The position numbers and the translations under genes are program-made. A model generated the notes under the pieces. It saw nothing but the letters and a program-made list of their open reading frames with translations. It made no database searches and was not told the origin of the DNA. 64,000 nucleotides of DNA from an uncultured Bifidobacterium sp. (GTDB lineage Bacteria > Verrucomicrobiota > Verrucomicrobiia > Limisphaerales > JADLHS01). Shown piece after piece: positions 19,597 to 47,799 of this stretch (position 1 is the first letter of the stretch; every line of letters starts with the position of its first letter). The stretch spans positions 19,230-83,229 of the forward strand of contig CAZKMR010000001.1 in assembly GCA_964553795.1 (NCBI GenBank). Direction: 5' to 3'.

Positions 19597-19763
19597 GTAG
19601 CGGCGGGCATCTTGTCTGCCGTAGAGCCGGGCTTCGAGCCCGGCGGTTAAAACGAAATCACGACGGTAGCGGTCAAAGAACGCGGAAGTTATCGGTCAAT
19701 CGGTCGTCTATTCCGGGCGGCAAGATGCCGCCCTCTACGTCAGGCGCGGACGCCTGACGCTAC
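19597..19763. repeat. Array of GTAG-plus-hairpin (REP-like) units in inverted orientation
   Basis: The left side reads GTAGC[GGCGGGC ATCTTG TCTGCC]GTAGA[GCCGGGC TTCG AGCCCGGC]. The right side, read as reverse complement, is GTAGC[GTCAGGCG TCCG CGCCTGAC]GTAGA[GGGCGGC ATCTT GCCGCCC]. Confidence 0.6.
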
Positions 19764-19820
19764 TTCGCATCGCCAGAATTTGCGCTTTTGCTGGGGCGCG
19801 GAAAACTTATCCTCGCGGCG

Positions 19821-20615
19821 ATGAATCCTGTTGCTCTGATCACCGGCGCGTCGCGTGGCATCGGTCGTGGTATCGCGCTGGAATTGGCCAAGCTCGGCTA
19901 CGATCTCGTGATCAATTACGCCGGCAACGCTGAAGCCGCGCAAAAGACGGCAGGGGATTGTGTCACAGTTGCAAGCGAAGCAGGAAAAACCATTCGTGCC
20001 GAGATCTGTCAGGCGGATATTTCGGAGAGCGCCGACCGGCAGAAACTGATTTCATTCACGCGCGAGAAGTTCAATCGTCTTGATCTGCTGGTAAACAATG
20101 CCGGCGTCGCACCGAACGTGCGCGCAGATATCCTGGAAGCGGGCGAGGAAAGCTTCGACCGCCTCATTGCCATCAACGTCAAAGGCCCGTATTTCCTCAC
20201 GCAACTCGCCGCGAAGTGGATGGTTGAAGAAACGCGGAGTGCGGAGTGCGGAGTGCGGAAACCAAAAATTGTGACAGTGAGTTCTATTTCCGCTTACACC
20301 GCTTCAACAAATCGCGGCGATTACTGTGTAAGCAAAGCGGCGCTCTCGATGTTGACGCCGTTGTTTGCGGCGCGGCTTGCGGAGTACGGCATCAATGTTT
20401 ACGAAATTCGTCCGGGAGTTATCGCCACAGACATGACCGGCGCGGTGAAGGAGAAGTATGACAAACTCATCGCCGAAGGAATGACGCCGATTCAACGCTG
20501 GGGCACGCCCGAAGACATCGGTCGCGCCGTGGCAGCGATTGCGAGCGACGCGTTTCCGTTTAGTACGGGTGAAGTCATCAACGTGGACGGCGGATTTCAT
20601 TTAAAAAGATTGTAG
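19821..20615 (+). CDS. Short-chain dehydrogenase/reductase (SDR)
   Basis: [12 protein letters not shown] cofactor motif, NNAG, and catalytic S...YCVSK. The start is ATG 19821. The TAG stop lies inside the GTAG of a repeat arm. Confidence 0.85.
20234..20259 (+). repeat. Tandem heptamer GCGGAGT x3 (plus a partial copy) inside the SDR coding sequence
   Basis: Read directly: gcggagt gcggagt gcggagt gcgga, translated as RSAECGVR in a loop just before the IVTVSS strand. Confidence 0.7.
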
Positions 20616-20695
20616 GAGACGACGTAAGGAGTCTCTAACTCGACCGAATCGCGCAGAAAACTGATTGATTTGAGACTCGTCACCTCGTCTCCTAC
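20612..20695. repeat. REPIN-like inverted doublet (GTAG-GAGAC-loop-GTCTC arms)
   Basis: The left arm is GTAGGAGACGACGTAAGGAGTCTC (20612-20635). The right arm is GAGACTCGTCACCTCGTCTCCTAC (20672-20695). The arms are inverted copies with 3 mismatches. Confidence 0.65.
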
Positions 20696-20703
20696 CAAAA
20701 AAC

Positions 20704-22218
20704 ATGGCCACAAAAATCGACACCAAACTCACGCCCCAAAAACTCCTGCCGCAAATCGAACGCGTGTTCGAGTTGTCCGGGCAAAAAATCCTGAGCATCG
20801 AAAAATCCTGGAAACCGGCGCAGGGCACGCCGGTGTTCACAGTGAAGGGTAAATACACGTCGCGCGGCTGGACGGAGTGGACGCAGGGTTTTCAATACGG
20901 TTCGGCTTTGCTGCAGTTCGATGCGATGGGCGACGAGCGGTTTCTCGAAATCGGCAAGCGCGGCACGGTGAAATACATGGCATCGCACGTGTCGCACATC
21001 GGCGTGCATGATCATGGATTCAACAATGTTTCGACGTACGGCAATTTGCTGCGCTTGATGCGCGAGGGGAAGATTCCGCAGAACGACGAGGAACAGAATT
21101 TCTACGAAATCGCGCTCAAGGTCAGCGGCGCGGTGCAGGCGTCGCGCTGGACGAAACTCGCGGATGGCACGGGGTTCATTCACAGCTTCAACGGGCCGCA
21201 CTCGCTGTTCGTGGATACGATTCGCTCGTGTCGTGCGCTGGCGGTGGCGCATCAACTCGGCCACGTGCTGATGGGCGAGCAGGACGCGAAGATTTCGTTG
21301 CTGCAACGAGTCGTCGAACACGCCCTGAACACGGCGCGCTACAACGTTTACTATGGCGAAGGGCGCGACGCTTACGATGTGCGCGGTCGCACGGCGCATG
21401 AAGCGGTGTTCAATACGGCGAGTGGGGTGTTTCGGTGCCCGAACTCGCAGCAGGGTTATTCGCCGTTCAGCACCTGGACGCGCGGGTTGGCGTGGGCGAT
21501 TTGTGGTTTTGCGGAGCAATTAGAGTTCATCCGCTTCATTCCTTGGCAAGAGCTTGAATTAGCCTCGTCGAAAAATCGGTGGCTACGAGACTATCGCTCG
21601 TTAAGCGATAAGCAAAAACTTCAACTCACACCTAAATTCGAATCTACTATTCGTAGATTGGCTACTGAGCCCGCAGCTAAAGCTTTGAAGGCGTTCCAAA
21701 CTGCCGCAATTTCTGCAGCAGACTTCTACCTCGAAAATTCCTGTGCCGATGGCGTGCCGATGTGGGACACGGGCGCGCCGAATCTGCATCGCCTGCCCGT
21801 GAATTATCTCAAGAAAGCATCCGATCCGTACAACAAGTTTGAACCGGTGGACGGGTCGGCGGCGGCGATTGCGGCGCAGGGCTTGATCCGGTTGGGCAAT
21901 TATTTAGGAAGCAATTCGAGGACGAGGACGAGAACGAAGGACGAGGACGATGGAAAGCGCTACAAACAGGCCGGGCTTACGATTGCGCGCACGTTGTTCA
22001 GCGAGCCCTGTCTTTCCACTGATCCGAAACATCAAGGTCTGTTGCTGCACTCGGTTTATCATCGGCCGAACGGCTGGGATTACATCGCGCCGGGGCAAAG
22101 CGTGCCAAATGGCGAAAGCTCGATGTGGGGCGATTATCATTTGCGTGAACTGGCTCTCCTCATTCTCCGCGAAGCGCGTGGTGAGCATTATCTGACGTTC
22201 TTTGATTCGACGAAATGA
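20704..22218 (+). CDS. GH88/GH105-like unsaturated uronyl hydrolase, carrying two apparent insertions
   Basis: WTEWTQGFQYG, HDHGFNN, WTRGLAWAICGF and a C-terminal MWGDYHLRELAL resemble unsaturated glucuronyl/rhamnogalacturonyl hydrolases. The family assignment is from memory of motifs only. Confidence 0.65.
   Translation: MATKIDTKLTPQKLLPQIERVFELSGQKILSIEKSWKPAQGTPVFTVKGKYTSRGWTEWTQGFQYGSALLQFDAMGDERFLEIGKRGTVKYMASHVSHIGVHDHGFNNVSTYGNLLRLMREGKIPQNDEEQNFYEIALKVSGAVQASRWTKLADGTGFIHSFNGPHSLFVDTIRSCRALAVAHQLGHVLMGEQDAKISLLQRVVEHALNTARYNVYYGEGRDAYDVRGRTAHEAVFNTASGVFRCPNSQQGYSPFSTWTRGLAWAICGFAEQLEFIRFIPWQELELASSKNRWLRDYRSLSDKQKLQLTPKFESTIRRLATEPAAKALKAFQTAAISAADFYLENSCADGVPMWDTGAPNLHRLPVNYLKKASDPYNKFEPVDGSAAAIAAQGLIRLGNYLGSNSRTRTRTKDEDDGKRYKQAGLTIARTLFSEPCLSTDPKHQGLLLHSVYHRPNGWDYIAPGQSVPNGESSMWGDYHLRELALLILREARGEHYLTFFDSTK
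21918..21950 (+). repeat. GAGGAC-type hexamer low-complexity run inside the hydrolase ORF
   Basis: gaggacgaggacgagaacgaaggacgaggacga is translated as RTRTRTKDEDD. Confidence 0.5.
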
Positions 22219-23204: not shown

Positions 23205-24275
23205 ATGAACTCAACAAAGACTTCATCCGCCGGAAGCATCAACCGCCGCAATTTTCTAGGCGCGACCACCACACTGGTTGCCGGTGCGCTGGCCGCTCCG
23301 AGTCTTGCGGCGGATCGCGACTGGAGCGGCCAACGACCGGTGCGTTATCCCGATCCCGACATCATTTCGCTCGATCCGCGCTTCAACAAATACAAGCTGG
23401 GCAACACGCCGATCCAACGACTGCATACGGGCATGTTGTGGGCGGAAGGTCCGGCGTGGAATGGCGTCGGTCGTTATCTGATGTGGAGCGATATTCCCAA
23501 CAACGTGCAATTGCGCCGGCTGGACGAAGATGGTCACGTGAGCACGTTTCGCAATCCGGCGGGAAACAGCAACGGCAACACGTTCGATTTCGAGGGACGA
23601 CAAATCAGTTGCGAGCACGGGAATCGTCGCGTGGTGCGCTATGAACCCAACGGCGGCATCACCGTGTTGGCGGAAAAGTGGAACGGCAAACCACTCAACG
23701 CGCCGAACGATGTGGTGGTGCATCCGGATGGCGGGATCTGGTTCACCGATCCCGGCTACGGCAGCATGATGAATTACGAAGGCAACAAAGGCGCGTTGGA
23801 AATCAAAGAAGCTGTTTATCGCATTGACCCCAAGACTGCGAAAATGGAATTGGTCACGGATGAATTGAGCAAGCCGAACGGACTCTGTTTTTCGCCGGAC
23901 TACCAAAAGCTCTACATCGCGGATACGGGTGCGGAGGCGCCGAAGCCGATTCAGGTTTTTGATGTGGTGGACGGCGTGAAGCTCAGCAAGGGTCGCCGCT
24001 TTTGCGCGATGGATTACAACGGCAAGAACGGCGGTGCGGACGGAATTCGCGCGGACGTTGATGGCAACATCTGGGCGAGCGCGGGCTGGGCGGGCGAAGG
24101 TTACGATGGCGTGCATGTGTTTGCGCCGGACGGCAAACGCATTGGTGTGATTCTGTTGCCGGAAATTTGCTCGAACGTGTGCTTCGGTGGCGCGAAGCGG
24201 AATCGCCTGTTCATGACGGCGAGCCAGTCGCTCTACGCGGTGTATGTCGAGACGCAAGGAGCGCATATTTGCTGA
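23205..24275 (+). CDS. SMP-30/gluconolactonase/LRE-family lactonase with a Tat signal
   Basis: Twin-arginine motif RRNFLGATTTLVAGALAAPSLAA, plus beta-propeller lactonase motifs AEGPAW, NGNTFD, PNDVVVHPDG, PNGLCFSPD and DGIRADVDGN. Confidence 0.85.
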   Translation: MNSTKTSSAGSINRRNFLGATTTLVAGALAAPSLAADRDWSGQRPVRYPDPDIISLDPRFNKYKLGNTPIQRLHTGMLWAEGPAWNGVGRYLMWSDIPNNVQLRRLDEDGHVSTFRNPAGNSNGNTFDFEGRQISCEHGNRRVVRYEPNGGITVLAEKWNGKPLNAPNDVVVHPDGGIWFTDPGYGSMMNYEGNKGALEIKEAVYRIDPKTAKMELVTDELSKPNGLCFSPDYQKLYIADTGAEAPKPIQVFDVVDGVKLSKGRRFCAMDYNGKNGGADGIRADVDGNIWASAGWAGEGYDGVHVFAPDGKRIGVILLPEICSNVCFGGAKRNRLFMTASQSLYAVYVETQGAHIC

Positions 24276-24278
24276 ATC

Positions 24279-24302
24279 GAGACTCGTCACCTCGTCTCCT
24301 AC
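24279..24302. repeat. Solo REP-like arm identical to the right arm at 20672-20695
   Basis: GAGACTCGTCACCTCGTCTCCTAC is an exact 24-nt match. A decayed partner arm may overlap the last codons of the lactonase gene. Confidence 0.55.
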
Positions 24303-24318
24303 AAATGGAAATCAATTT

Positions 24319-25806
24319 ATGGCTGAACCATTCAAACTGACTCGCATTCCCACGCTGAAAACGGTGGCGGACTTTCGCGCGCACATCGCGGCGCTGGGCC
24401 TGGACTTGCCTTGTGAAGATCAAATCGTAGCCGGCGGTGATTCACCGCTCGCGCAGGCGATTGAGGGCGTGACCATCAATGGCAAACGCATTGGCAATCG
24501 CTGGGCGATTCATCCGATGGAAGGTTGGGACGGCACAACGACCGGTGGCGTGACCGAGGAAATGTTGCGGCGCTGGCAGCGGTTTGGCGAAAGCGGCGCG
24601 AAGTTGATTTACGGCGGCGAAGCGATGGCCGTGCGTCCGGATGGTCGCGCGAATCCGAATCAAATTATCATCACTGAGGAAAACAAGGCGGGCATTGCGT
24701 CGTTGCGCGAGACGCTGGTGAAGGCGCATCAAGAGCGGTACGGCAAGGTGGATGACTTGGTGATCGGCTTTCAACTCACGCACTCGGGACGGTTCTGCAA
24801 GCCGAACGACAAAAAACGCATGGAGCCGCGTGTGGCGTTTCGGCATCCGATTCTGGATCGCAAATTCAACGTGACGAGCGATGCGCAGATGTTTACGGAT
24901 GCGGAGATTGAGGAACTGATTCAATGCTACATTCGCGCGGCAAAGATTGCGTGGGACGTGGGCGCGGACTTCGTGGACATCAAACATTGTCACGGCTATC
25001 TGCTGCACGAATTTCTCGGCGCGCACACGCGACCGGGCAAGTTCGGTGGCTGCTTTGAGAATCGCACCCGCATCTTGCGCGACATAGTGGCGGGCATTCG
25101 CGCGAGTGGAAATGCGATTGAACTCGGCGTGCGACTCAGCGCGTTTGATTTTGTGCCGTTCAAACCCGATCCGGCGCTGTCGCAACCTGGCAAACTCGGT
25201 CCGGGCATTCCGGAGGACTACTCGCATTGCGTGCCGTATCGCTACGGCTTCAGTGTGAATCCCGACAACCCCGTGGACTACGACTTGTCGGAGACGCATC
25301 AGTTCGTCGAACTGTGTGCGCAACTCGGCGTGAAGATTCTGAATCTGAGCGCGGGTTCACCTTATTACAATCCGCATATCCAACGTCCGGCGGCGTATCC
25401 GCCGAGCGACGGGTATCAGCCGGCGCATGATCCGCTGATTGATGTGGCGCGACAGATCAATGTGGTGCGCCAGATTAAAGTTCGCGCGCCGAAGAATATG
25501 GTGCTGGTGGGAACAGCGTACAGTTACTTGCAGGAATACCTGCCGCATGTGGCGCAGTACGTCGTGCGCCACGGCTGGACGGACATGGTGGGCCTGGGTC
25601 GCATGGTTTTGAGTTATCCGAACATCCTCGCCGAGGCGGTGGAGAAGGGGAGCATCACGCCGAAGCAGATTTGTCGCACGTTCAGTGATTGCACCACCGC
25701 GCCGCGCAACGGAATGATTTCCGGCTGCTATCCGCTGGATAAATATTACTCGGCCAAACCCGAGTTCCAGCAGTTGAAGGAAGTGAAGAAGAAGGTGGGG
25801 GCGTGA
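24319..25806 (+). CDS. NADH:flavin oxidoreductase (Old Yellow Enzyme-like TIM barrel)
   Basis: HPMEGWDG, QLTHSGR and DIKHCHGYLLHEFL are typical of OYE/2,4-dienoyl-CoA-reductase-like flavoenzymes. The start is ATG 24319. Confidence 0.8.
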   Translation: MAEPFKLTRIPTLKTVADFRAHIAALGLDLPCEDQIVAGGDSPLAQAIEGVTINGKRIGNRWAIHPMEGWDGTTTGGVTEEMLRRWQRFGESGAKLIYGGEAMAVRPDGRANPNQIIITEENKAGIASLRETLVKAHQERYGKVDDLVIGFQLTHSGRFCKPNDKKRMEPRVAFRHPILDRKFNVTSDAQMFTDAEIEELIQCYIRAAKIAWDVGADFVDIKHCHGYLLHEFLGAHTRPGKFGGCFENRTRILRDIVAGIRASGNAIELGVRLSAFDFVPFKPDPALSQPGKLGPGIPEDYSHCVPYRYGFSVNPDNPVDYDLSETHQFVELCAQLGVKILNLSAGSPYYNPHIQRPAAYPPSDGYQPAHDPLIDVARQINVVRQIKVRAPKNMVLVGTAYSYLQEYLPHVAQYVVRHGWTDMVGLGRMVLSYPNILAEAVEKGSITPKQICRTFSDCTTAPRNGMISGCYPLDKYYSAKPEFQQLKEVKKKVGA

Positions 25807-32290: not shown

Positions 32291-35008
32291 GTGCAGTCGC
32301 TCGAAAACCAACTCGCCGAATTGCCGGCGCTCAATCAGGTCACCGTGCCCGACCTGTGGCAGCAGCAGGCGGTGATGGCGTTGCGCGAAGGCAAAGACGT
32401 GGTCGTGCAAGCGCCGACCGGCTCGGGCAAGACGCTGATTTTCGAGTTGTGGTCCAATCAGGGCAAGCCGCGCGGTCAGGCGATTTACACGGTGCCGACG
32501 CGCGCGTTGGCCAATGACAAACTCGCCGAATGGCGCGCGCGCGGTTGGGATGTTGGCATCGCGACGGGCGATCTCGCCGAAAACCTCGGCGCTCCGGTGA
32601 TCGTGGCAACGTTGGAGACGCAGAAGAATCGGTTGATCGCAGGTGAAGGGCCGACGCTGCTCGTGGTGGATGAATACCAGATGATCAGCGATCCGGATCG
32701 CGGATTGAACTACGAACTCGCGCTCGCGCTCGCGCCGTCGCACACGCAACTTCTGCTGTTGAGCGGCAGTGTTTCCAATCCGCATCACGTGGTGCAATGG
32801 CTGAATCGCCTCGGGCGCAAGGCCGTGTTGATACGTCACGAACATCGCCCGGTGCCGCTAGATGAAGTGTGGGCGAACAATTTGAACTTTCACGTGCCTT
32901 CGGAGATTCGCGGTTATTGGGCGCGCTTGGTCGCGAAAGCGTTGGCCGAAGACCTCGGGCCGATTTTGATCTTTGCGCCGCGCCGACAAGGCGCAGAAAG
33001 CATGGCCGCTGATCTCGCGCGCAATTTGCCCACGCCCAATCCGCTCCAACTTTCCACCGAGCAAAAACAGATTGTTGGCGAACATCTCGCGAAGATGCTC
33101 AAGAGTCGCATCGCGTATCATCACAGCGGCTTGAGCTACGCAGCGCGGGCGGGCGTGATTGAACCGCTGGCGAAGGCGGGACAATTGCGCGTGGTGGTGG
33201 CGACGATGGGTTTGGCGGCGGGCATCAATTTTTCGCTGCGCAGTGTGGCGTTGGCGGGCGAATCGTATCGGCGCGATGCCGTGGAACAGCCGCTGCGCGC
33301 GGATGAGATTTTGCAGATGTTCGGTCGCGCGGGGCGACGCGGATTGGACGAAACGGGCTATGTGTTGATCACGGCGAATGAGATTCGTTTGCTGGATGCG
33401 CGGGCGTGTCATCTGTCGCGGAGCGGCGCGGTGGACTGGAGCGCGTTGTTGGGTTTGATGCAAACGGCGGCGGAGCAGGGGAAGACGCCGTTCGCGGAAG
33501 CGGTGCGCGCGCAGGAACGCTTGTTCACGACGAAGCCGATTTTGCTGGGCGTGGAAGAATCCATGAAACATCCGGTTGTGCCGTGCGGATTGCACACGGA
33601 TGCGGAGCGCGCGCGGCACGTGCGGAAACGGCAGCGCGAGATGTTGAACAGTCGCGGTGAATGGCAGGCGTATCCGATGACGACGGAAAAGCCGTTGCGC
33701 GAAATTGTGGTGGGAGACAAGGAAACGCACAGGGGAACATCCAACATCCAAGGCTCGGCGGATGGCCATTCTTTGGGAAATAGAGCTAACTCGCAGCCGG
33801 TCGGAAATGGGCAGACAGAATATTTGCAGGACGACCACTCACCCCAAAACCGTAGCCGCCGACGTGAGGAGGCGGAGCGCTCTGCAAACGAAATGCTTCC
33901 GCCTCCTCATGTCGGCGACTACCACGAGCCGGTTTCTGCAGACAGCTCGTATGAAGCGAAGCCCACTTTTCGCTCCGTGCTCTCCGAACAAGCGGCGTTG
34001 GAAAAAGTTGGGACGGGGATGATCGTGGTTCTGGAGGAACGCGAGGACGGAACAAAAGTTTACGGTCGCGCTTCAACCGTGGCGGACGTGCTCAGCGGCG
34101 ATCGTGTGATCATCGCCAAGTGGGTGCGGCGACTGACGAATTGGAACGGTCGGCAGGCGGAGTTGAGTGTGTGGCACGAAAAAATTGCGCCGTTGCTCGA
34201 ACACAGACTCGCCGGTCAGCATACGCCGGTGGTGAAGTTCGTGAAGCAGGCGCAACGCATTCTCGTTTACGTGAGTCTCGCAGACCTGACGATGCGCGTG
34301 CCGGTGGATAATTACGGTGTGGCGATGTGGAAACCGGTCGAGCGGGAAGTGTTGCCCTACGATTGCGCGCAGTGTTCGCTGGTCGAAGTGTGCAAAACGC
34401 TGCCGACGGCGACGGGAACGGCGTTGACGTGGCGGCGTTTGAATCTCGTGGATGCGGAAGGCAAGCCGACGCTGCGCGGGCGCGTGGTGAGTTTCTTTCA
34501 ACAGGGCGACGGCTTGGCAATCGCTGCGGCGCTGGAGGATGAGCGGTATCCGTTGGACGAATTGATTTACGACATCGCGAATTTAGACGGCGGTTTTCGC
34601 TTTTGCGGCGATGAGAATCGTTATGCGGGCCGATTGGCGAATGCGTGTCACGAGAAGTTTCAATTGCTCAGCATACCCGGCTATCTCGAAAACGGGTTGC
34701 CGCCGAAATATGGTTACGGCGCGGAAGCGGTCGTGCAGAGCGTGCATAAAAATCCCGCGAGCAAACATCATTGGGTGACGGATTTGCTCGGGGCGGGGGA
34801 CATTGATCGGGCGATTATCGAGTGGCGTAGTTTACTGCGGCAAATTTCGCATGCGCCGGAACTGGAGTGGCCGCGCTGGAGCGCGTTTCAGGCGTTGGCA
34901 AAGACGACGTTGAACGAGACGGAATCGCCGACGCTAACGGAGTTACCGCGGCTGGAGTACCACCAAACGCGGCGCGTGGATCATCGGTTGATTTTGCGGC
35001 GGCATTGA
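32291..35008 (+). CDS. Superfamily-2 DEAD/DEAH-box (Ski2/HelY-like) helicase
   Basis: Motif I QAPTGSGKT, motif II VVDEYQ, motif VI QMFGRAGRRG, and a large C-terminal domain. It contains a low-complexity, repeat-bearing insert around 33720-33960. Confidence 0.85.
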   Translation: MQSLENQLAELPALNQVTVPDLWQQQAVMALREGKDVVVQAPTGSGKTLIFELWSNQGKPRGQAIYTVPTRALANDKLAEWRARGWDVGIATGDLAENLGAPVIVATLETQKNRLIAGEGPTLLVVDEYQMISDPDRGLNYELALALAPSHTQLLLLSGSVSNPHHVVQWLNRLGRKAVLIRHEHRPVPLDEVWANNLNFHVPSEIRGYWARLVAKALAEDLGPILIFAPRRQGAESMAADLARNLPTPNPLQLSTEQKQIVGEHLAKMLKSRIAYHHSGLSYAARAGVIEPLAKAGQLRVVVATMGLAAGINFSLRSVALAGESYRRDAVEQPLRADEILQMFGRAGRRGLDETGYVLITANEIRLLDARACHLSRSGAVDWSALLGLMQTAAEQGKTPFAEAVRAQERLFTTKPILLGVEESMKHPVVPCGLHTDAERARHVRKRQREMLNSRGEWQAYPMTTEKPLREIVVGDKETHRGTSNIQGSADGHSLGNRANSQPVGNGQTEYLQDDHSPQNRSRRREEAERSANEMLPPPHVGDYHEPVSADSSYEAKPTFRSVLSEQAALEKVGTGMIVVLEEREDGTKVYGRASTVADVLSGDRVIIAKWVRRLTNWNGRQAELSVWHEKIAPLLEHRLAGQHTPVVKFVKQAQRILVYVSLADLTMRVPVDNYGVAMWKPVEREVLPYDCAQCSLVEVCKTLPTATGTALTWRRLNLVDAEGKPTLRGRVVSFFQQGDGLAIAAALEDERYPLDELIYDIANLDGGFRFCGDENRYAGRLANACHEKFQLLSIPGYLENGLPPKYGYGAEAVVQSVHKNPASKHHWVTDLLGAGDIDRAIIEWRSLLRQISHAPELEWPRWSAFQALAKTTLNETESPTLTELPRLEYHQTRRVDHRLILRRH
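33852..33922. repeat. REPIN-like inverted doublet inside the helicase ORF
   Basis: GTAGCCGCCGACGTGAGGAGGCGGA (33852-33876), a 21-nt spacer, then TCCGCCTCCTCATGTCGGCGACTAC (33898-33922). The arms are complementary at 23/25 positions. Confidence 0.7.
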
Positions 35009-44507: not shown

Positions 44508-45932
44508 ATGTCCATATTAAAAGTCATCCTGGTGGTGTTGGAAGCGCTGCTCGCGCTGAACCTGCTCATTTTCGTTCACGAACTCGGGCACTTCCTTGCC
44601 GCGCGCTGGCGCGGTTTGAAAGTCGAACGCTTCGCCATCTGGTTCGGCAAGCCGATCTGGAGCAAGAAGATCAACGGTGTGGAATATGCGCTCGGCTGGA
44701 TTCCCGCCGGCGGTTACGTGTCGCTCCCCCAAATGGCCACGATGGAAGCCATCGAAGGCAAAACCGAGGAAAAGGCTGAGCAACTACCGAACATTTCGCC
44801 GCTGGACAAGATCATCGTGGCGTTTGCCGGACCGCTGTTCAGTTTTCTGCTGGCAATTATGTTCGCGGTGCTCGTCTGGCAAGTCGGCAAACCGGTGAGC
44901 GTGGTGGAAGAAGCACCCGTGCTGGGGTGGGTCGTGCCCGAAGGGCCGGCGTGGAAGGCGGGGTTGCGCCCCGGCGATCAAATCCTCGAGATCGACGACA
45001 AACCGGTAACCACCTTTGGCCCGCCGTCGCGGGATAGCATCACCTGGCGCGTCATTACCAGCGAGGGGGAACAACTCAAGATCAAGTATGAGCGCGACGG
45101 GCAAACCAATGTCGTTTTCGCCACTCCCGAAAAAGCAAAGACGAAATGGTATGAACGCCGCGCCTTGCGGATGATCAAAGTGGGCCCGGTCGAAACGGCG
45201 ATGATCTACAACGTCGCTTCGAACAGTCCCGCGGCGCTGGCCGGAATTCGTCCCGGGGACATTATCACCAAATTGAATGGCGAAGACATTTTGAGTTACG
45301 CGGAGGTGTTTCATGCGCAAGCCGGCCAGACCAATCCCAGCGCAGGCCCCGTGGAATTCACAGTGAAACGAGGCGCGGAGGAATTCACGCGCACGCTCGC
45401 CGCCGTCAAGCCGGTTTCCCCCACCAACATGCCGCCCTCATTTGGGATTCTGAGTTTTCAAGCGAATACGAACGTCGCCGTGAAATACCGGCATCCCAGC
45501 CCGTGGGAGCAGATCGAAGACAGCGCCGGTCAGATTTTCGCGACCATCGGCGCGGTATTTTCACCGAAAACTGACATCGGCGTGCAACAACTCGGCGGCG
45601 CGGTGATGATCATCCGCGTTTACAAAAACCTGTTTGAGAACGAAGACGGCTGGCGCTTGGTGCTCTGGTTCAGCGTCGTCCTCAACGTGAATCTCGCGAT
45701 GCTGAATATGTTGCCGCTGCCCGTGCTGGATGGCGGACACATCACGCTCGCATTGGTCGAAGCGGCGCGGCGCCGCCCCGTCAGTCCCAGATTGCTCAAT
45801 TATATTCAAAGCGGCTTCGCGATTCTCTTAATCACCTTCATGTTGTGGATTGCATTCTTCGATACGGGCGATTGGATTCGCAGCGCCCGGTCGGATCGCG
45901 AGCACAAAATTGTTTTTGCCCCGCAACAGTAA
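44508..45932 (+). CDS. rseP: RIP site-2 zinc metalloprotease RseP (M50)
   Basis: HELGHFLAA zinc motif, PDZ domains (GLRPGDQILEID; GIRPGDIITKLNG) and a C-terminal LNMLPLPVLDGG. Confidence 0.9.
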   Translation: MSILKVILVVLEALLALNLLIFVHELGHFLAARWRGLKVERFAIWFGKPIWSKKINGVEYALGWIPAGGYVSLPQMATMEAIEGKTEEKAEQLPNISPLDKIIVAFAGPLFSFLLAIMFAVLVWQVGKPVSVVEEAPVLGWVVPEGPAWKAGLRPGDQILEIDDKPVTTFGPPSRDSITWRVITSEGEQLKIKYERDGQTNVVFATPEKAKTKWYERRALRMIKVGPVETAMIYNVASNSPAALAGIRPGDIITKLNGEDILSYAEVFHAQAGQTNPSAGPVEFTVKRGAEEFTRTLAAVKPVSPTNMPPSFGILSFQANTNVAVKYRHPSPWEQIEDSAGQIFATIGAVFSPKTDIGVQQLGGAVMIIRVYKNLFENEDGWRLVLWFSVVLNVNLAMLNMLPLPVLDGGHITLALVEAARRRPVSPRLLNYIQSGFAILLITFMLWIAFFDTGDWIRSARSDREHKIVFAPQQ

Positions 45933-45942
45933 GCATTGGCTT

Positions 45943-47799
45943 ATGCGTTATTGCGATTCTCCCTACGTCTTCAAACGTCGCCAGACGCGCGAGGTGGTCA
46001 TTGGCGATCCGGCGAACGGGGGCGTGATCATTGGTGGCGATCATCCAGTGGTCGCACAATCCATGATCACCTGCGACACGATGGACACGGCGGCGAGCGT
46101 GCAGCAAACGCTTGATCTCGTCGCGGTCGGTTGCCAGATCGTGCGCATCACCGCGCCAACGGTGAAGGACGCGGCGAACTTGCAGAACATCGTGGCGGAA
46201 TTGCGCCAGCGCGGTTGCAACGTGCCGATTGTCGCGGACATTCACTTCAAACCCGAAGCCGCGATGGAAGCGGTGAAATGGGTGGAAGTCATTCGCGTCA
46301 ATCCCGGTAACTATGCCGACTCCAAGAAATTCGCGATCAAGGAATACACCGACGAGCAATACGCGGCGGAGCTGAAGCGGATTGAAGAAAAGTTCACGCC
46401 GCTCGTGCTCGAGTGCCTGAAGCTCAAGCGCGCGATGCGCATCGGCACGAACCACGGTTCACTCAGCGATCGCATCATGAATCGCTACGGCGACACGCCG
46501 TTGGGAATGGTCGAAAGCGCGCTGGAATTCGCCCGCATCTGCCGCAAGCACGACTTTCACAACTTCAAGTTCTCGATGAAGTCGAGCAATCCGAAGGTGA
46601 TGATTGAGTGTTATCGCCTATTAGTGGCGCGGCTGGAACAGGAAGGACCGGATTGGAATTATCCGATTCACCTCGGCGTCACTGAAGCCGGCGAAGGCGA
46701 GGATGGACGCATCAAGAGCGCCATCGGGATCGGCTCGCTATTGTGCGACGGCTTGGGCGATACGATTCGCGTTTCGCTGACGGAAGATTCGCCGCGCGAA
46801 ATTGAAGTCTGCCGCGATTTGCTCGCGCAGATTCCGTTGCTCGCCAATACAAAGACCAGCATTGCGGAAACGAGTTTTCCCTTTGATCCCTTTCACTTCG
46901 AAAAGCGACAGACGCCCGAGATTGAACTGAACGAACAAGTCAAATGCGGCGGCGAACAACTTATCCGCGTCGTCGTCACCAGAGCGACCTGGGACAAAGT
47001 CGCGCCGAAGATTCGTCCCAAGGACGATGTAAAACCCGAAGCGGTTTACGAGGATTTGAACGTTGCGGAGCTTGATCCGACTCAAGACTTCGAAATCAAC
47101 TGCGACACGCAACTGGTCACCGTGAAGGACGGCGTGAATTTGCCGGCCATCACGGCGTTTCGCTTGTTGGTCGCTAAATTGAAGCGGCTGGGTCGCAAGA
47201 ATCCCATTTTGCTGAAAGATTGTCTGGGATTCGGTGGTAGCCGCCGAGGTAACGAGGCGGACACTTCGATTGGCAAGAATCCGCCTCCTCACGTCGGCGG
47301 CTACGAAGTTCTTGAGCCGAAGATCGCTTTGCTTCGCGCCTCGGTAGTCATCGGATCATTGCTGGCGGATGGCATCGGCGATGCGATTCTCGTTCGGGGC
47401 GAATCGGGTGCGGGCCAAAGTCTGCGGCTCGCGTATAATATTTTGCAGGCGGCGGGTTGCCGCAGCTTCAAGACGGATTACGTCGCTTGCCCGAGTTGCG
47501 GTCGCACATTGTTCAATCTCCAGACCGTCACCGCGCGCATCAAAGCGCGCACGGAACATCTCAAGGGCGTGAAAATCGCCATCATGGGTTGCATCGTAAA
47601 TGGTCCGGGCGAAATGGCGGATGCGGATTTCGGTTACGTTGGCGGCGCGCCGGGCAAAATCAATCTCTACGTCGGCAAAACTCCGATCAAGTTCAACATC
47701 CCCGAAGCCGAAGCGGTGGAGCGGCTCGTGGATTTGATTCGCGAACACGGCAAGTGGGTTGAGCCGGAAGTCGAATTGGCGAAAGTAGAACAGTCGTAA
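45943..47799 (+). CDS. ispG: 4-hydroxy-3-methylbut-2-enyl diphosphate synthase, long form
   Basis: VRITAPT, IVADIHF, IRVNPGN, a C-terminal ACPSCGRT ... GCIVNGPGE Fe-S motif, and a large internal domain typical of long-type IspG. The start is ATG 45943. Confidence 0.9.
   Translation: MRYCDSPYVFKRRQTREVVIGDPANGGVIIGGDHPVVAQSMITCDTMDTAASVQQTLDLVAVGCQIVRITAPTVKDAANLQNIVAELRQRGCNVPIVADIHFKPEAAMEAVKWVEVIRVNPGNYADSKKFAIKEYTDEQYAAELKRIEEKFTPLVLECLKLKRAMRIGTNHGSLSDRIMNRYGDTPLGMVESALEFARICRKHDFHNFKFSMKSSNPKVMIECYRLLVARLEQEGPDWNYPIHLGVTEAGEGEDGRIKSAIGIGSLLCDGLGDTIRVSLTEDSPREIEVCRDLLAQIPLLANTKTSIAETSFPFDPFHFEKRQTPEIELNEQVKCGGEQLIRVVVTRATWDKVAPKIRPKDDVKPEAVYEDLNVAELDPTQDFEINCDTQLVTVKDGVNLPAITAFRLLVAKLKRLGRKNPILLKDCLGFGGSRRGNEADTSIGKNPPPHVGGYEVLEPKIALLRASVVIGSLLADGIGDAILVRGESGAGQSLRLAYNILQAAGCRSFKTDYVACPSCGRTLFNLQTVTARIKARTEHLKGVKIAIMGCIVNGPGEMADADFGYVGGAPGKINLYVGKTPIKFNIPEAEAVERLVDLIREHGKWVEPEVELAKVEQS
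47237..47304. repeat. REPIN-like inverted doublet inside the ispG ORF
   Basis: GTAGCCGCCGAGGTAACGAGGCGGA (47237-47261), an 18-nt spacer, then TCCGCCTCCTCACGTCGGCGGCTAC (47280-47304). The arms are complementary at 22/25 positions. Confidence 0.7.

Follow-up and report, generated by a model that had tools for sequence, protein, structure and literature searches.

A GTAG-tagged inverted hairpin doublet in a verrucomicrobial genome is very probably a REPIN-like pair of REP units propagated by RAYT-type transposases

What is the inverted hairpin doublet that separates two sugar-metabolism genes at positions 20612-20695 of the window, by which we mean the whole 64-kb stretch of DNA analysed here, and what accounts for its recurrence elsewhere? 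The doublet is composed of two inverted 24-nt units and fills the 88-nt gap between the stop codon of a short-chain dehydrogenase gene and the ATG at 20704 of a GH88-like gene. The two genes are co-directional, and the element lies 0 nt past the stop codon of the first and 8 nt ahead of the start of the second. Read as single-stranded DNA, a unit of this type is GTAG-GAGAC-GACGTGAGGA-GTCTC. The features needed for the argument are the following.

19788-20615: short-chain dehydrogenase ORF, 275 aa, the last codon being the TAG in GTAG
20612-20635, + strand: left candidate REP unit, GTAG-GAGAC-GACGTAAGGA-GTCTC, with 5/5 stem pairs
20613-20615, + strand: TAG stop of the short-chain dehydrogenase gene, inside the GTAG tag
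20636-20671, no strand: doublet spacer, 36 nt, its first bases TAAC being a recurrent W-N-W-Y tail
20672-20695, - strand: right candidate REP unit, inverted; the plus strand reads GAGAC-TCGTCACCTC-GTCTC-CTAC and the minus strand GTAG-GAGAC-GAGGTGACGA-GTCTC
20704: ATG of the GH88-like gene, which starts 8 nt past the end of the right unit
24279-24302, - strand: single candidate REP unit, identical to the right arm of the doublet
33852-33922: CCGCC/GGCGG doublet, units 33852-75 (+) and 33899-922 (-)
47237-47304: CCGCC/GGCGG doublet, units 47237-60 (+) and 47281-304 (-)

A search with the pattern GTAGGAGACGASGTRASGAGTCTC, allowing up to 3 mismatches, returned exactly three sites in the window, namely the two arms of the doublet and 24279-24302, while the shuffled window gave 0 matches. 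The single unit is located between a gluconolactonase-like gene (stop at 24275) and an OYE-like gene (probable ATG at 24319), and is antisense relative to its own operon. When the search was centred on the loop, four units with a CCGCC/GGCGG stem were added, bringing the total to 7 units at 4 loci in 64 kb; three of these loci are doublets and the GTAG is present in 7/7 units. The two stem types have in common the GTAG and a GA-S-GTRA-S-GA core, and differ at 3/5 stem positions, with every difference compensated on the opposite side. Rereading the sequence thus bears out what the original prediction had described at this scale: the GAGAC/GTCTC doublet itself, the exact copy of its right arm, the GTAG and loop consensus shared with CCGCC-type copies, the coordinated stem swap, and the dehydrogenase TAG placed inside the tag. 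The CCGCC-type sister copies are not intergenic. The doublet at 33852-33922, whose minus-strand unit is slightly degenerate (GACATGAGGA and TCGCC), lies in-frame within the 905-aa ORF of a DEAD-box helicase (32291-35008), and that at 47237-47304 in-frame within a 649-aa IspG/GcpE ORF (45850-47799), where it encodes GSRRGNEADTSIGKNPPPHVGGY. Both contribute about 23 aa to their host genes.

Two other features of the window resemble these units. A cluster of differently built GTAG-tagged hairpins occupies 19599-19763, upstream of the dehydrogenase gene; they have 8-9-bp GC-rich stems and 3-5-nt loops:

19621-44, + strand: GTAG-tagged hairpin
19715-38, - strand: GTAG-tagged hairpin
19738-63, - strand: GTAG-tagged hairpin

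They probably represent a second REP family, and a pattern for this cluster at about 19.6 kb found no match in 218 loci. The stretch 24242-24265 (GTATGTCGAGACGCAAGGAGCGCA) is unit-like, agreeing with the core at 9/10 positions and carrying GTAT in place of GTAG. As a decayed left arm it would turn the 24279 copy into one half of a doublet, a reading that we considered and rejected because GTATGTCGAGACGCAAGGAGCGCA belongs to the conserved C-terminal coding region of the gluconolactonase-like gene in an element-free ortholog (L217).

Orthologous loci show what these junctions look like without the elements. Of the orthologs of the GH88-like gene, the closest shows 90% identity (L216) and a second one 82% (L217); both lie in the same gene neighbourhood, in which the elements are missing. 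The dehydrogenases of these two loci end in ...L-R-R-L-TGA, and at the same codon the window reads ...L-K-R-L-TAG, fused to the unit. Similarly, the gluconolactonase/OYE junction is a 3-nt gap in L217 as against 43 nt with a single unit in the window. The ~23-aa insert of IspG is likewise absent from two homologs of 63-70% identity (P0361 and P0380). A further IspG homolog of 78% identity (P0486) carries a different insert, VGVQPSACPDKLKLELH, at the same linker; VGVQPSACPDKLKLELH possibly comes from another repeat family. The elements are insertions and, with the orthologous sites empty, they are recent gains (or losses) and not conserved regulatory sequence.

To see the family at a larger scale, a collection of species-representative genomes was scanned for doublets with the GTAG and the core fixed and all stem positions left free. 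This returned at least 119 loci from at least 86 assemblies, and among the matches listed the assembly titles were nearly all Verrucomicrobiota, Limisphaerales or Pedosphaera. Some of the records are MAGs titled Bifidobacterium or Gammaproteobacteria (L008, L013, L022, L040, L093, L100, L101, L105), titles which, among otherwise verrucomicrobial matches, are probably labelling issues. The same doublet pattern occurred in three contigs of a viral collection; these contigs (L001-L003) come from IMG/VR, where they are classed as viral. None of the fetched loci comes from the genome of the window, the best match among them being 84% identical over 1.3 kb. One MAG had 6 doublets in 6 fetched blocks, and several stem types were found in single genomes (CAVRPQ and CAZIFU, for example), as in the window. 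When the fetched loci were searched with the loop as the centre, the GTAG was found in 262/274 matches, a figure to be read with the fact that the doublet scan itself demanded GTAG; chance matches to the 10-nt core, estimated at about 13 in the 867 kb searched, come near the 12 without GTAG.

The scan did not require complementarity of the stems and therefore provides an unbiased test of pairing. Over 88 distinct units, 87.7% of cells were paired compared to 64.5% in shuffles, and 0/500 shuffles reached 87.7%; slid controls were 28-46% paired. The covariation score was 0.539 as against 0.186, with two-sided changes in 5/6 pairs, and G-U pairs are present in the stems. Both arms had identical stems in only 62/125 doublets. 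Many doublets combine two different stems that are each internally complementary, such as GAGAC/GTCTC with GAGTC/GACTC, and it is therefore the hairpin of the single unit that is conserved and not only the long inter-arm fold. The proposal that selection acts on the folded hairpin is upheld by this covariation and by the mixed, self-complementary arms. The accompanying view of a conserved loop needs to be amended: the core is indeed kept across copies, but it is not an unstructured loop. Its positions 3 and 8 covary as C..G or G..C, the inner pair being CG in 51, GC in 35 and other in 2 of the 88 distinct units; in the wider census the same positions were C..G 181 times, G..C 85 times, G..G 8 times and never C..C.

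The 24-nt unit can consequently be described as a GTAG, a 5-bp outer stem, tandem G·A/A·G mismatches, one Watson-Crick pair and a GTRA tetraloop. The innermost pair of the outer stem, C9-G20, which sits beside the mismatches, is nearly invariant. At the outermost position of the stem C·C mismatches are frequent; the abundant CAGCC/GGCTC type is an example. Ahead of the units stand two pyrimidines, and behind them a W-N-W-Y tail such as TGAC, TAAC or AAAT. In sister families beside related transposase genes the 24-nt layout is kept and the GA/GA positions are Watson-Crick paired, for instance in GTAG-CAGCG-GA-C-GTGA-G-TC-CGCTC and GTAG-CCCCG-CT-C-GTGA-G-AG-CGGGG, which confirms that these positions face each other.

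The units also stand in a peculiar relation to genes. A frame open for at least 150 codons ends exactly in the TAG of the GTAG in 19/262 units, a spike to be compared with 1-4 cases at any other distance in the distance histogram of the same 262 units. The stop codon predicted to lie inside the tag of the dehydrogenase gene is thus one instance of a recurrent arrangement. At the same time, for 42/122 doublets in the fetched loci the surrounding frame remains open over 80 codons or more to either side. Random 70-nt segments meet this criterion in 59% of cases, and the depletion of doublets from genes is therefore only about 1.7-fold. Ten such doublets were translated, and the genes that contain them include IleS, UvrB, CarB and ValS; in ValS of two genomes, doublets of different stem types occupy one and the same site. 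Example loci are L022, L009, L021, L028 and L075 (of L004-L122). Two of the three forward frames of a unit contain stop codons, namely the TAG in GTAG and often a TGA or TAA in the tail; intragenic doublets were entered in the remaining frame (xGT-AGN) in 32/46 open-frame cases. The resulting peptides are recurrent, of the form SRR(R/G)xEA...PPPHVGGY or ...LLTSAAT.

The original prediction had implied a protein, a RAYT, that recognises the GTAG plus a hairpin. No RAYT-like ORF was found in the 64-kb window, either by phmmer with E. coli RayT or with an HMM of the verrucomicrobial family, so that it is through relatives that the units are tied to a transposase. A six-frame search of the loci with E. 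coli RayT gave one weak match, truncated by the end of its locus and directly beside three units. Database expansion from this match led to a family of 201-aa proteins with 1450 matches at E ≤ 1e-10, some of them named RayT by JGI. Their alignment contains two invariant motifs, PDHxH..W (HxH) and Y-x3-NP; the invariant residues H80, H82, Y139, N143 and P144 (alignment A2) were aligned with the motifs of 4ER8. This structure, E. coli TnpA-REP, was also the best PDB match (profile E 0.0017, hhalign probability 80%, both motifs aligned). Among NCBIfam models the best match of the representative was NF047646 (REP_Tyr_transpos; E 6.9e-12, model positions 3-145 of 146), at a score of 45.5 bits that lies below the 80-bit cutoff and compares with 179 bits for E. 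coli RayT. By these profile matches, the 201-aa protein is a distant relative, with NF047646 as its best-matching family. The IS200 model NF033573 did not match the verrucomicrobial protein, nor did any Pfam model match the RAYT-like protein, and the AlphaFold model of the latter had a pLDDT of 40, too poor for use.

It is in the arrangement around these genes that the units and the protein meet. Units flank every closely related gene with fetched context (L026, L126, L128-L132, L213-L215). Of 80 metagenomic loci found by the protein profile, 67 had both flanks available, and in 49/67 a unit was present within 150 nt on both sides of the RAYT-like gene. In the closest clade the layout is fixed, with a (+) unit 14 nt ahead of the ATG and a (-) unit 21 nt past the stop codon. 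A clustering of 77 full-length proteins was then compared with the flanking stems. Depending on the protein clade these are GAGAC/GTCTC, CAGCC/GGCTC or fully paired 8-bp stems, and the clade of P0068 and P0088 is flanked by CCACC/GGTGG, the type nearest to the CCGCC of the window. RAYT clades thus track stem type in related genomes, although the separation is not absolute, with mixed-type doublets and with one RAYT gene (L130) flanked by two types. Both expectations concerning the protein hold in relatives of the window: a RAYT-like family bordered by the units, which by its sequence would be the one recognising GTAG and hairpin, and stem sub-families that follow RAYT paralogs with the exceptions just given.

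Several further observations concern these genes and their flanks. Distant RAYT-like clades (L188, L198, L199, L209, L212, L124) are flanked by 24-nt GTAG units with a fully paired 8-bp stem, which keep the GTGA/GTAA loop, as in GTAG-CAGCGGAC-GTGA-GTCCGCTC and GTAG-CCCCGCTC-GTGA-GAGCGGGG; they keep the scaffold of the present units and close its G·A mismatches. At L195 a GAGAC-type unit on both flanks of the RAYT-like gene (249-797) has its core interrupted by a nested insertion of some 30 nt that carries a hairpin of its own (GTAGGAGACGA-cccgtcctccgtaggctctgcggagggtgg-AGGTGACGAGTCTC). Some RAYT-like genes look inactivated (L124 1811-2650; L127 4001-4580), one being interrupted by about 260 nt of unrelated inserted sequence and another lacking the stretch with the catalytic Tyr, and two short homologs (P0084 and P0115) have internal deletions. 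The C-terminal extensions of P0194 and P0198 (ETPHVVSY; RDSSRRLL) are the translated downstream inverted unit, which is further evidence of a unit following the gene. Many of the RAYT-like homologs are found on short contigs.

Taken together, these data make it very probable that the doublet is a REPIN-like pair of GTAG-tagged REPs propagated by a RAYT (TnpA-REP). REPINs were reportedly introduced by Bertels and Rainey in 2011. As a class, REPs are mobile DNA of the non-autonomous kind, and it is on their folded single strand that a REP-associated tyrosine transposase acts to propagate them. By analogy with the E. coli system, the enzyme would read the GTAG together with the interrupted hairpin, and would bind and cleave the unit. 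The outer stem would be free to change as long as it remains paired, and the RAYT clades would have co-diverged with the outer stems. The cognate RAYT or RAYTs are presumably encoded in the window's own genome.

A different possibility is that the element is primarily an RNA structure that would serve, at the boundary of the dehydrogenase and GH88-like cistrons, for 3′ stabilisation, processing or attenuation, with the tandem G·A mismatches and the GNRA-type tetraloop bound by an RNA-binding protein. The folding data invite such a reading. The minimum-energy fold of the window doublet is a long inter-arm hairpin, at -18.1 kcal/mol (z -4.1) as DNA and a very stable -37.5 kcal/mol (z -5.95) as RNA, and a lone unit folds weakly (-2.7 kcal/mol as DNA). 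Its position between co-directional genes and the G-U pairs in the stems point the same way, and REPs of other bacteria are reported by Di Nocera et al. (2013, PMC3733652) to stabilise mRNA. However, a search for intrinsic terminators, in which a T run comes after a GC-rich hairpin, gave no terminator-like site in 20300-21000, the sequence after the doublet being CCAAAAAAC without a U-tract, and no Rfam family matches the window at gathering score, the sole match being a chance miRNA with an E-value of 1.2. The units occur in both orientations, such that half of them present UCAC and UC·UC instead of GNRA and G·A to a given transcript, and at 24279 the single unit runs antisense to the operon around it. 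Copies inside coding sequences, orthologous junctions without elements and the tight physical association with a transposase-like gene also speak against a primary role in RNA, which we regard as unlikely. The very stable doublet hairpin could still have a side effect on the 3′ end of the dehydrogenase transcript; as a by-product such an RNA effect is plausible, but not as the reason for the existence of the family.

In IS200/IS605 elements, an HUH Y1 enzyme recognises subterminal single-stranded DNA hairpins together with a short guide or tetranucleotide. The units could accordingly be the ends or miniature derivatives (PATE/MITE) of an active insertion sequence of this type, in keeping with the kinship of the flanking protein, an HUH Y1 enzyme, to IS200 transposases, with the many homologs on short contigs as for multi-copy elements, and with the several broken copies. 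Short contigs are, however, equally expected from assembly breaks at the flanking repeats, and the best family model is that of the REP-associated transposase, the IS200 model remaining without match. Unlike the distinct ends of IS200/IS605, the units on the two sides of the gene are identical, forming an inverted short repeat that is also dispersed far from the gene, and no TnpB gene was adjacent to the RAYT-like genes in the contexts examined. The tagging by GTAG is itself a hallmark of REPs (PMC3733652). An origin from such an insertion sequence is thus very unlikely. Since the inverted repeat separates two genes belonging to the same operon, one might think of palindromes arising by chance, or of an operator recognised as double-stranded DNA by a local transcription factor for sugar utilisation, but the zero matches in shuffles, the presence of the unit at unrelated loci of the window and in at least 86 other assemblies, including inside essential genes, and the orthologous operons that lack the element leave them next to no credibility.

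A REPIN-like origin with propagation by a RAYT accounts for a sequence feature that recurs in this genome and in dozens of uncultured Verrucomicrobiota. It also carries a warning for annotation, in that the GTAG can donate stop codons and inserts of about 23 aa in housekeeping proteins derive from the repeat. Breaks in assemblies may occur at the repeats, and the many RAYT-like genes on short contigs would be in line with this. The family moreover offers a natural experiment on REP recognition, with one conserved core and several outer-stem types each tied to a RAYT clade, and with sister clades in which the G·A mismatches are closed to Watson-Crick pairs. A bolder proposition would be that the repeat/RAYT system spans many species of the Verrucomicrobiota, that its in-frame inserts are translated and selected, and that the core possibly has a host function. 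As a whole we find this doubtful. If the inserts are indeed translated and selection keeps them, proteins of the phylum would regularly acquire linker insertions from the repeats, and the invariant GA·GA/GTRA core might then serve the host beyond recognition by the transposase.

How does the repeat compare with known systems? There are published precedents for GTAG-tagged REPs as such, for compensatory changes in their stems, for the flanking of RAYT genes, for the donation of TAG stops and for copies inside genes. Di Nocera et al. (2013, PMC3733652) defined the superfamily of GTAG-tagged REPs and describe stems altered in a complementary way, inverted dimers whose units lie about 20-100 bp apart, RAYT genes flanked by REPs (REPtrons), TAG stops donated by the GTAG, and intragenic copies in Uvr, helicase and tRNA-synthetase genes, Opitutus terrae (Verrucomicrobium) having the most intragenic copies. 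The present family is alike in its 5′ GTAG and short stem-loop, its compensated stems, inverted dimers and RAYT flanking, its donation of TAG, and its copies in helicase, Uvr and aminoacyl-tRNA synthetase genes. Its 5-bp outer stem is shorter than the 6-9 bp given by these authors for most families; they mention 5-bp stems in the Thauera GTAG-1 repeats. Strong conservation of the core C-GA-S-GTRA-S'-GA-G is seen in at least 86 assemblies. The spacer shows no conservation between genomes. Set beside the 24 families of Di Nocera et al. by their descriptions in the text, the present repeat is probably a new family within the known REP/RAYT scheme, and it involves no new mechanism.

A close parallel is the E. 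coli system (Messing et al. 2012, PMC3479197; Corneloup et al. 2021, PMC8266576). There TnpA-REP needs the GTAG and an unpaired 2x2 interruption of the stem, the bases beside the interruption matter, and the enzymes form two groups that co-evolved with bulged and with perfect REPs. GTAG, lower stem, 2x2 unpaired interruption and upper stem-loop are found in both repeats. The interruption is A12A13/G26C27 in the E. coli REP and GA/GA in the present family, and the conserved stem positions next to it are T11/G32 and C9-G20, respectively. The upper part is reduced here to one base pair with a conserved tetraloop, whereas the loop sequence is unselected in E. coli. On the side of the protein, the HUH and Tyr motifs follow in the same order in E. 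coli TnpA-REP (4ER8) and in the 201-aa protein, which is about 35 residues longer than E. coli RayT and has a conserved C-terminal GYP...W..FW...RQPDAGN tail. The division of the E. coli scheme into bulged and perfect REPs, each co-evolving with its own group of enzymes, has a like pattern here between the clades.
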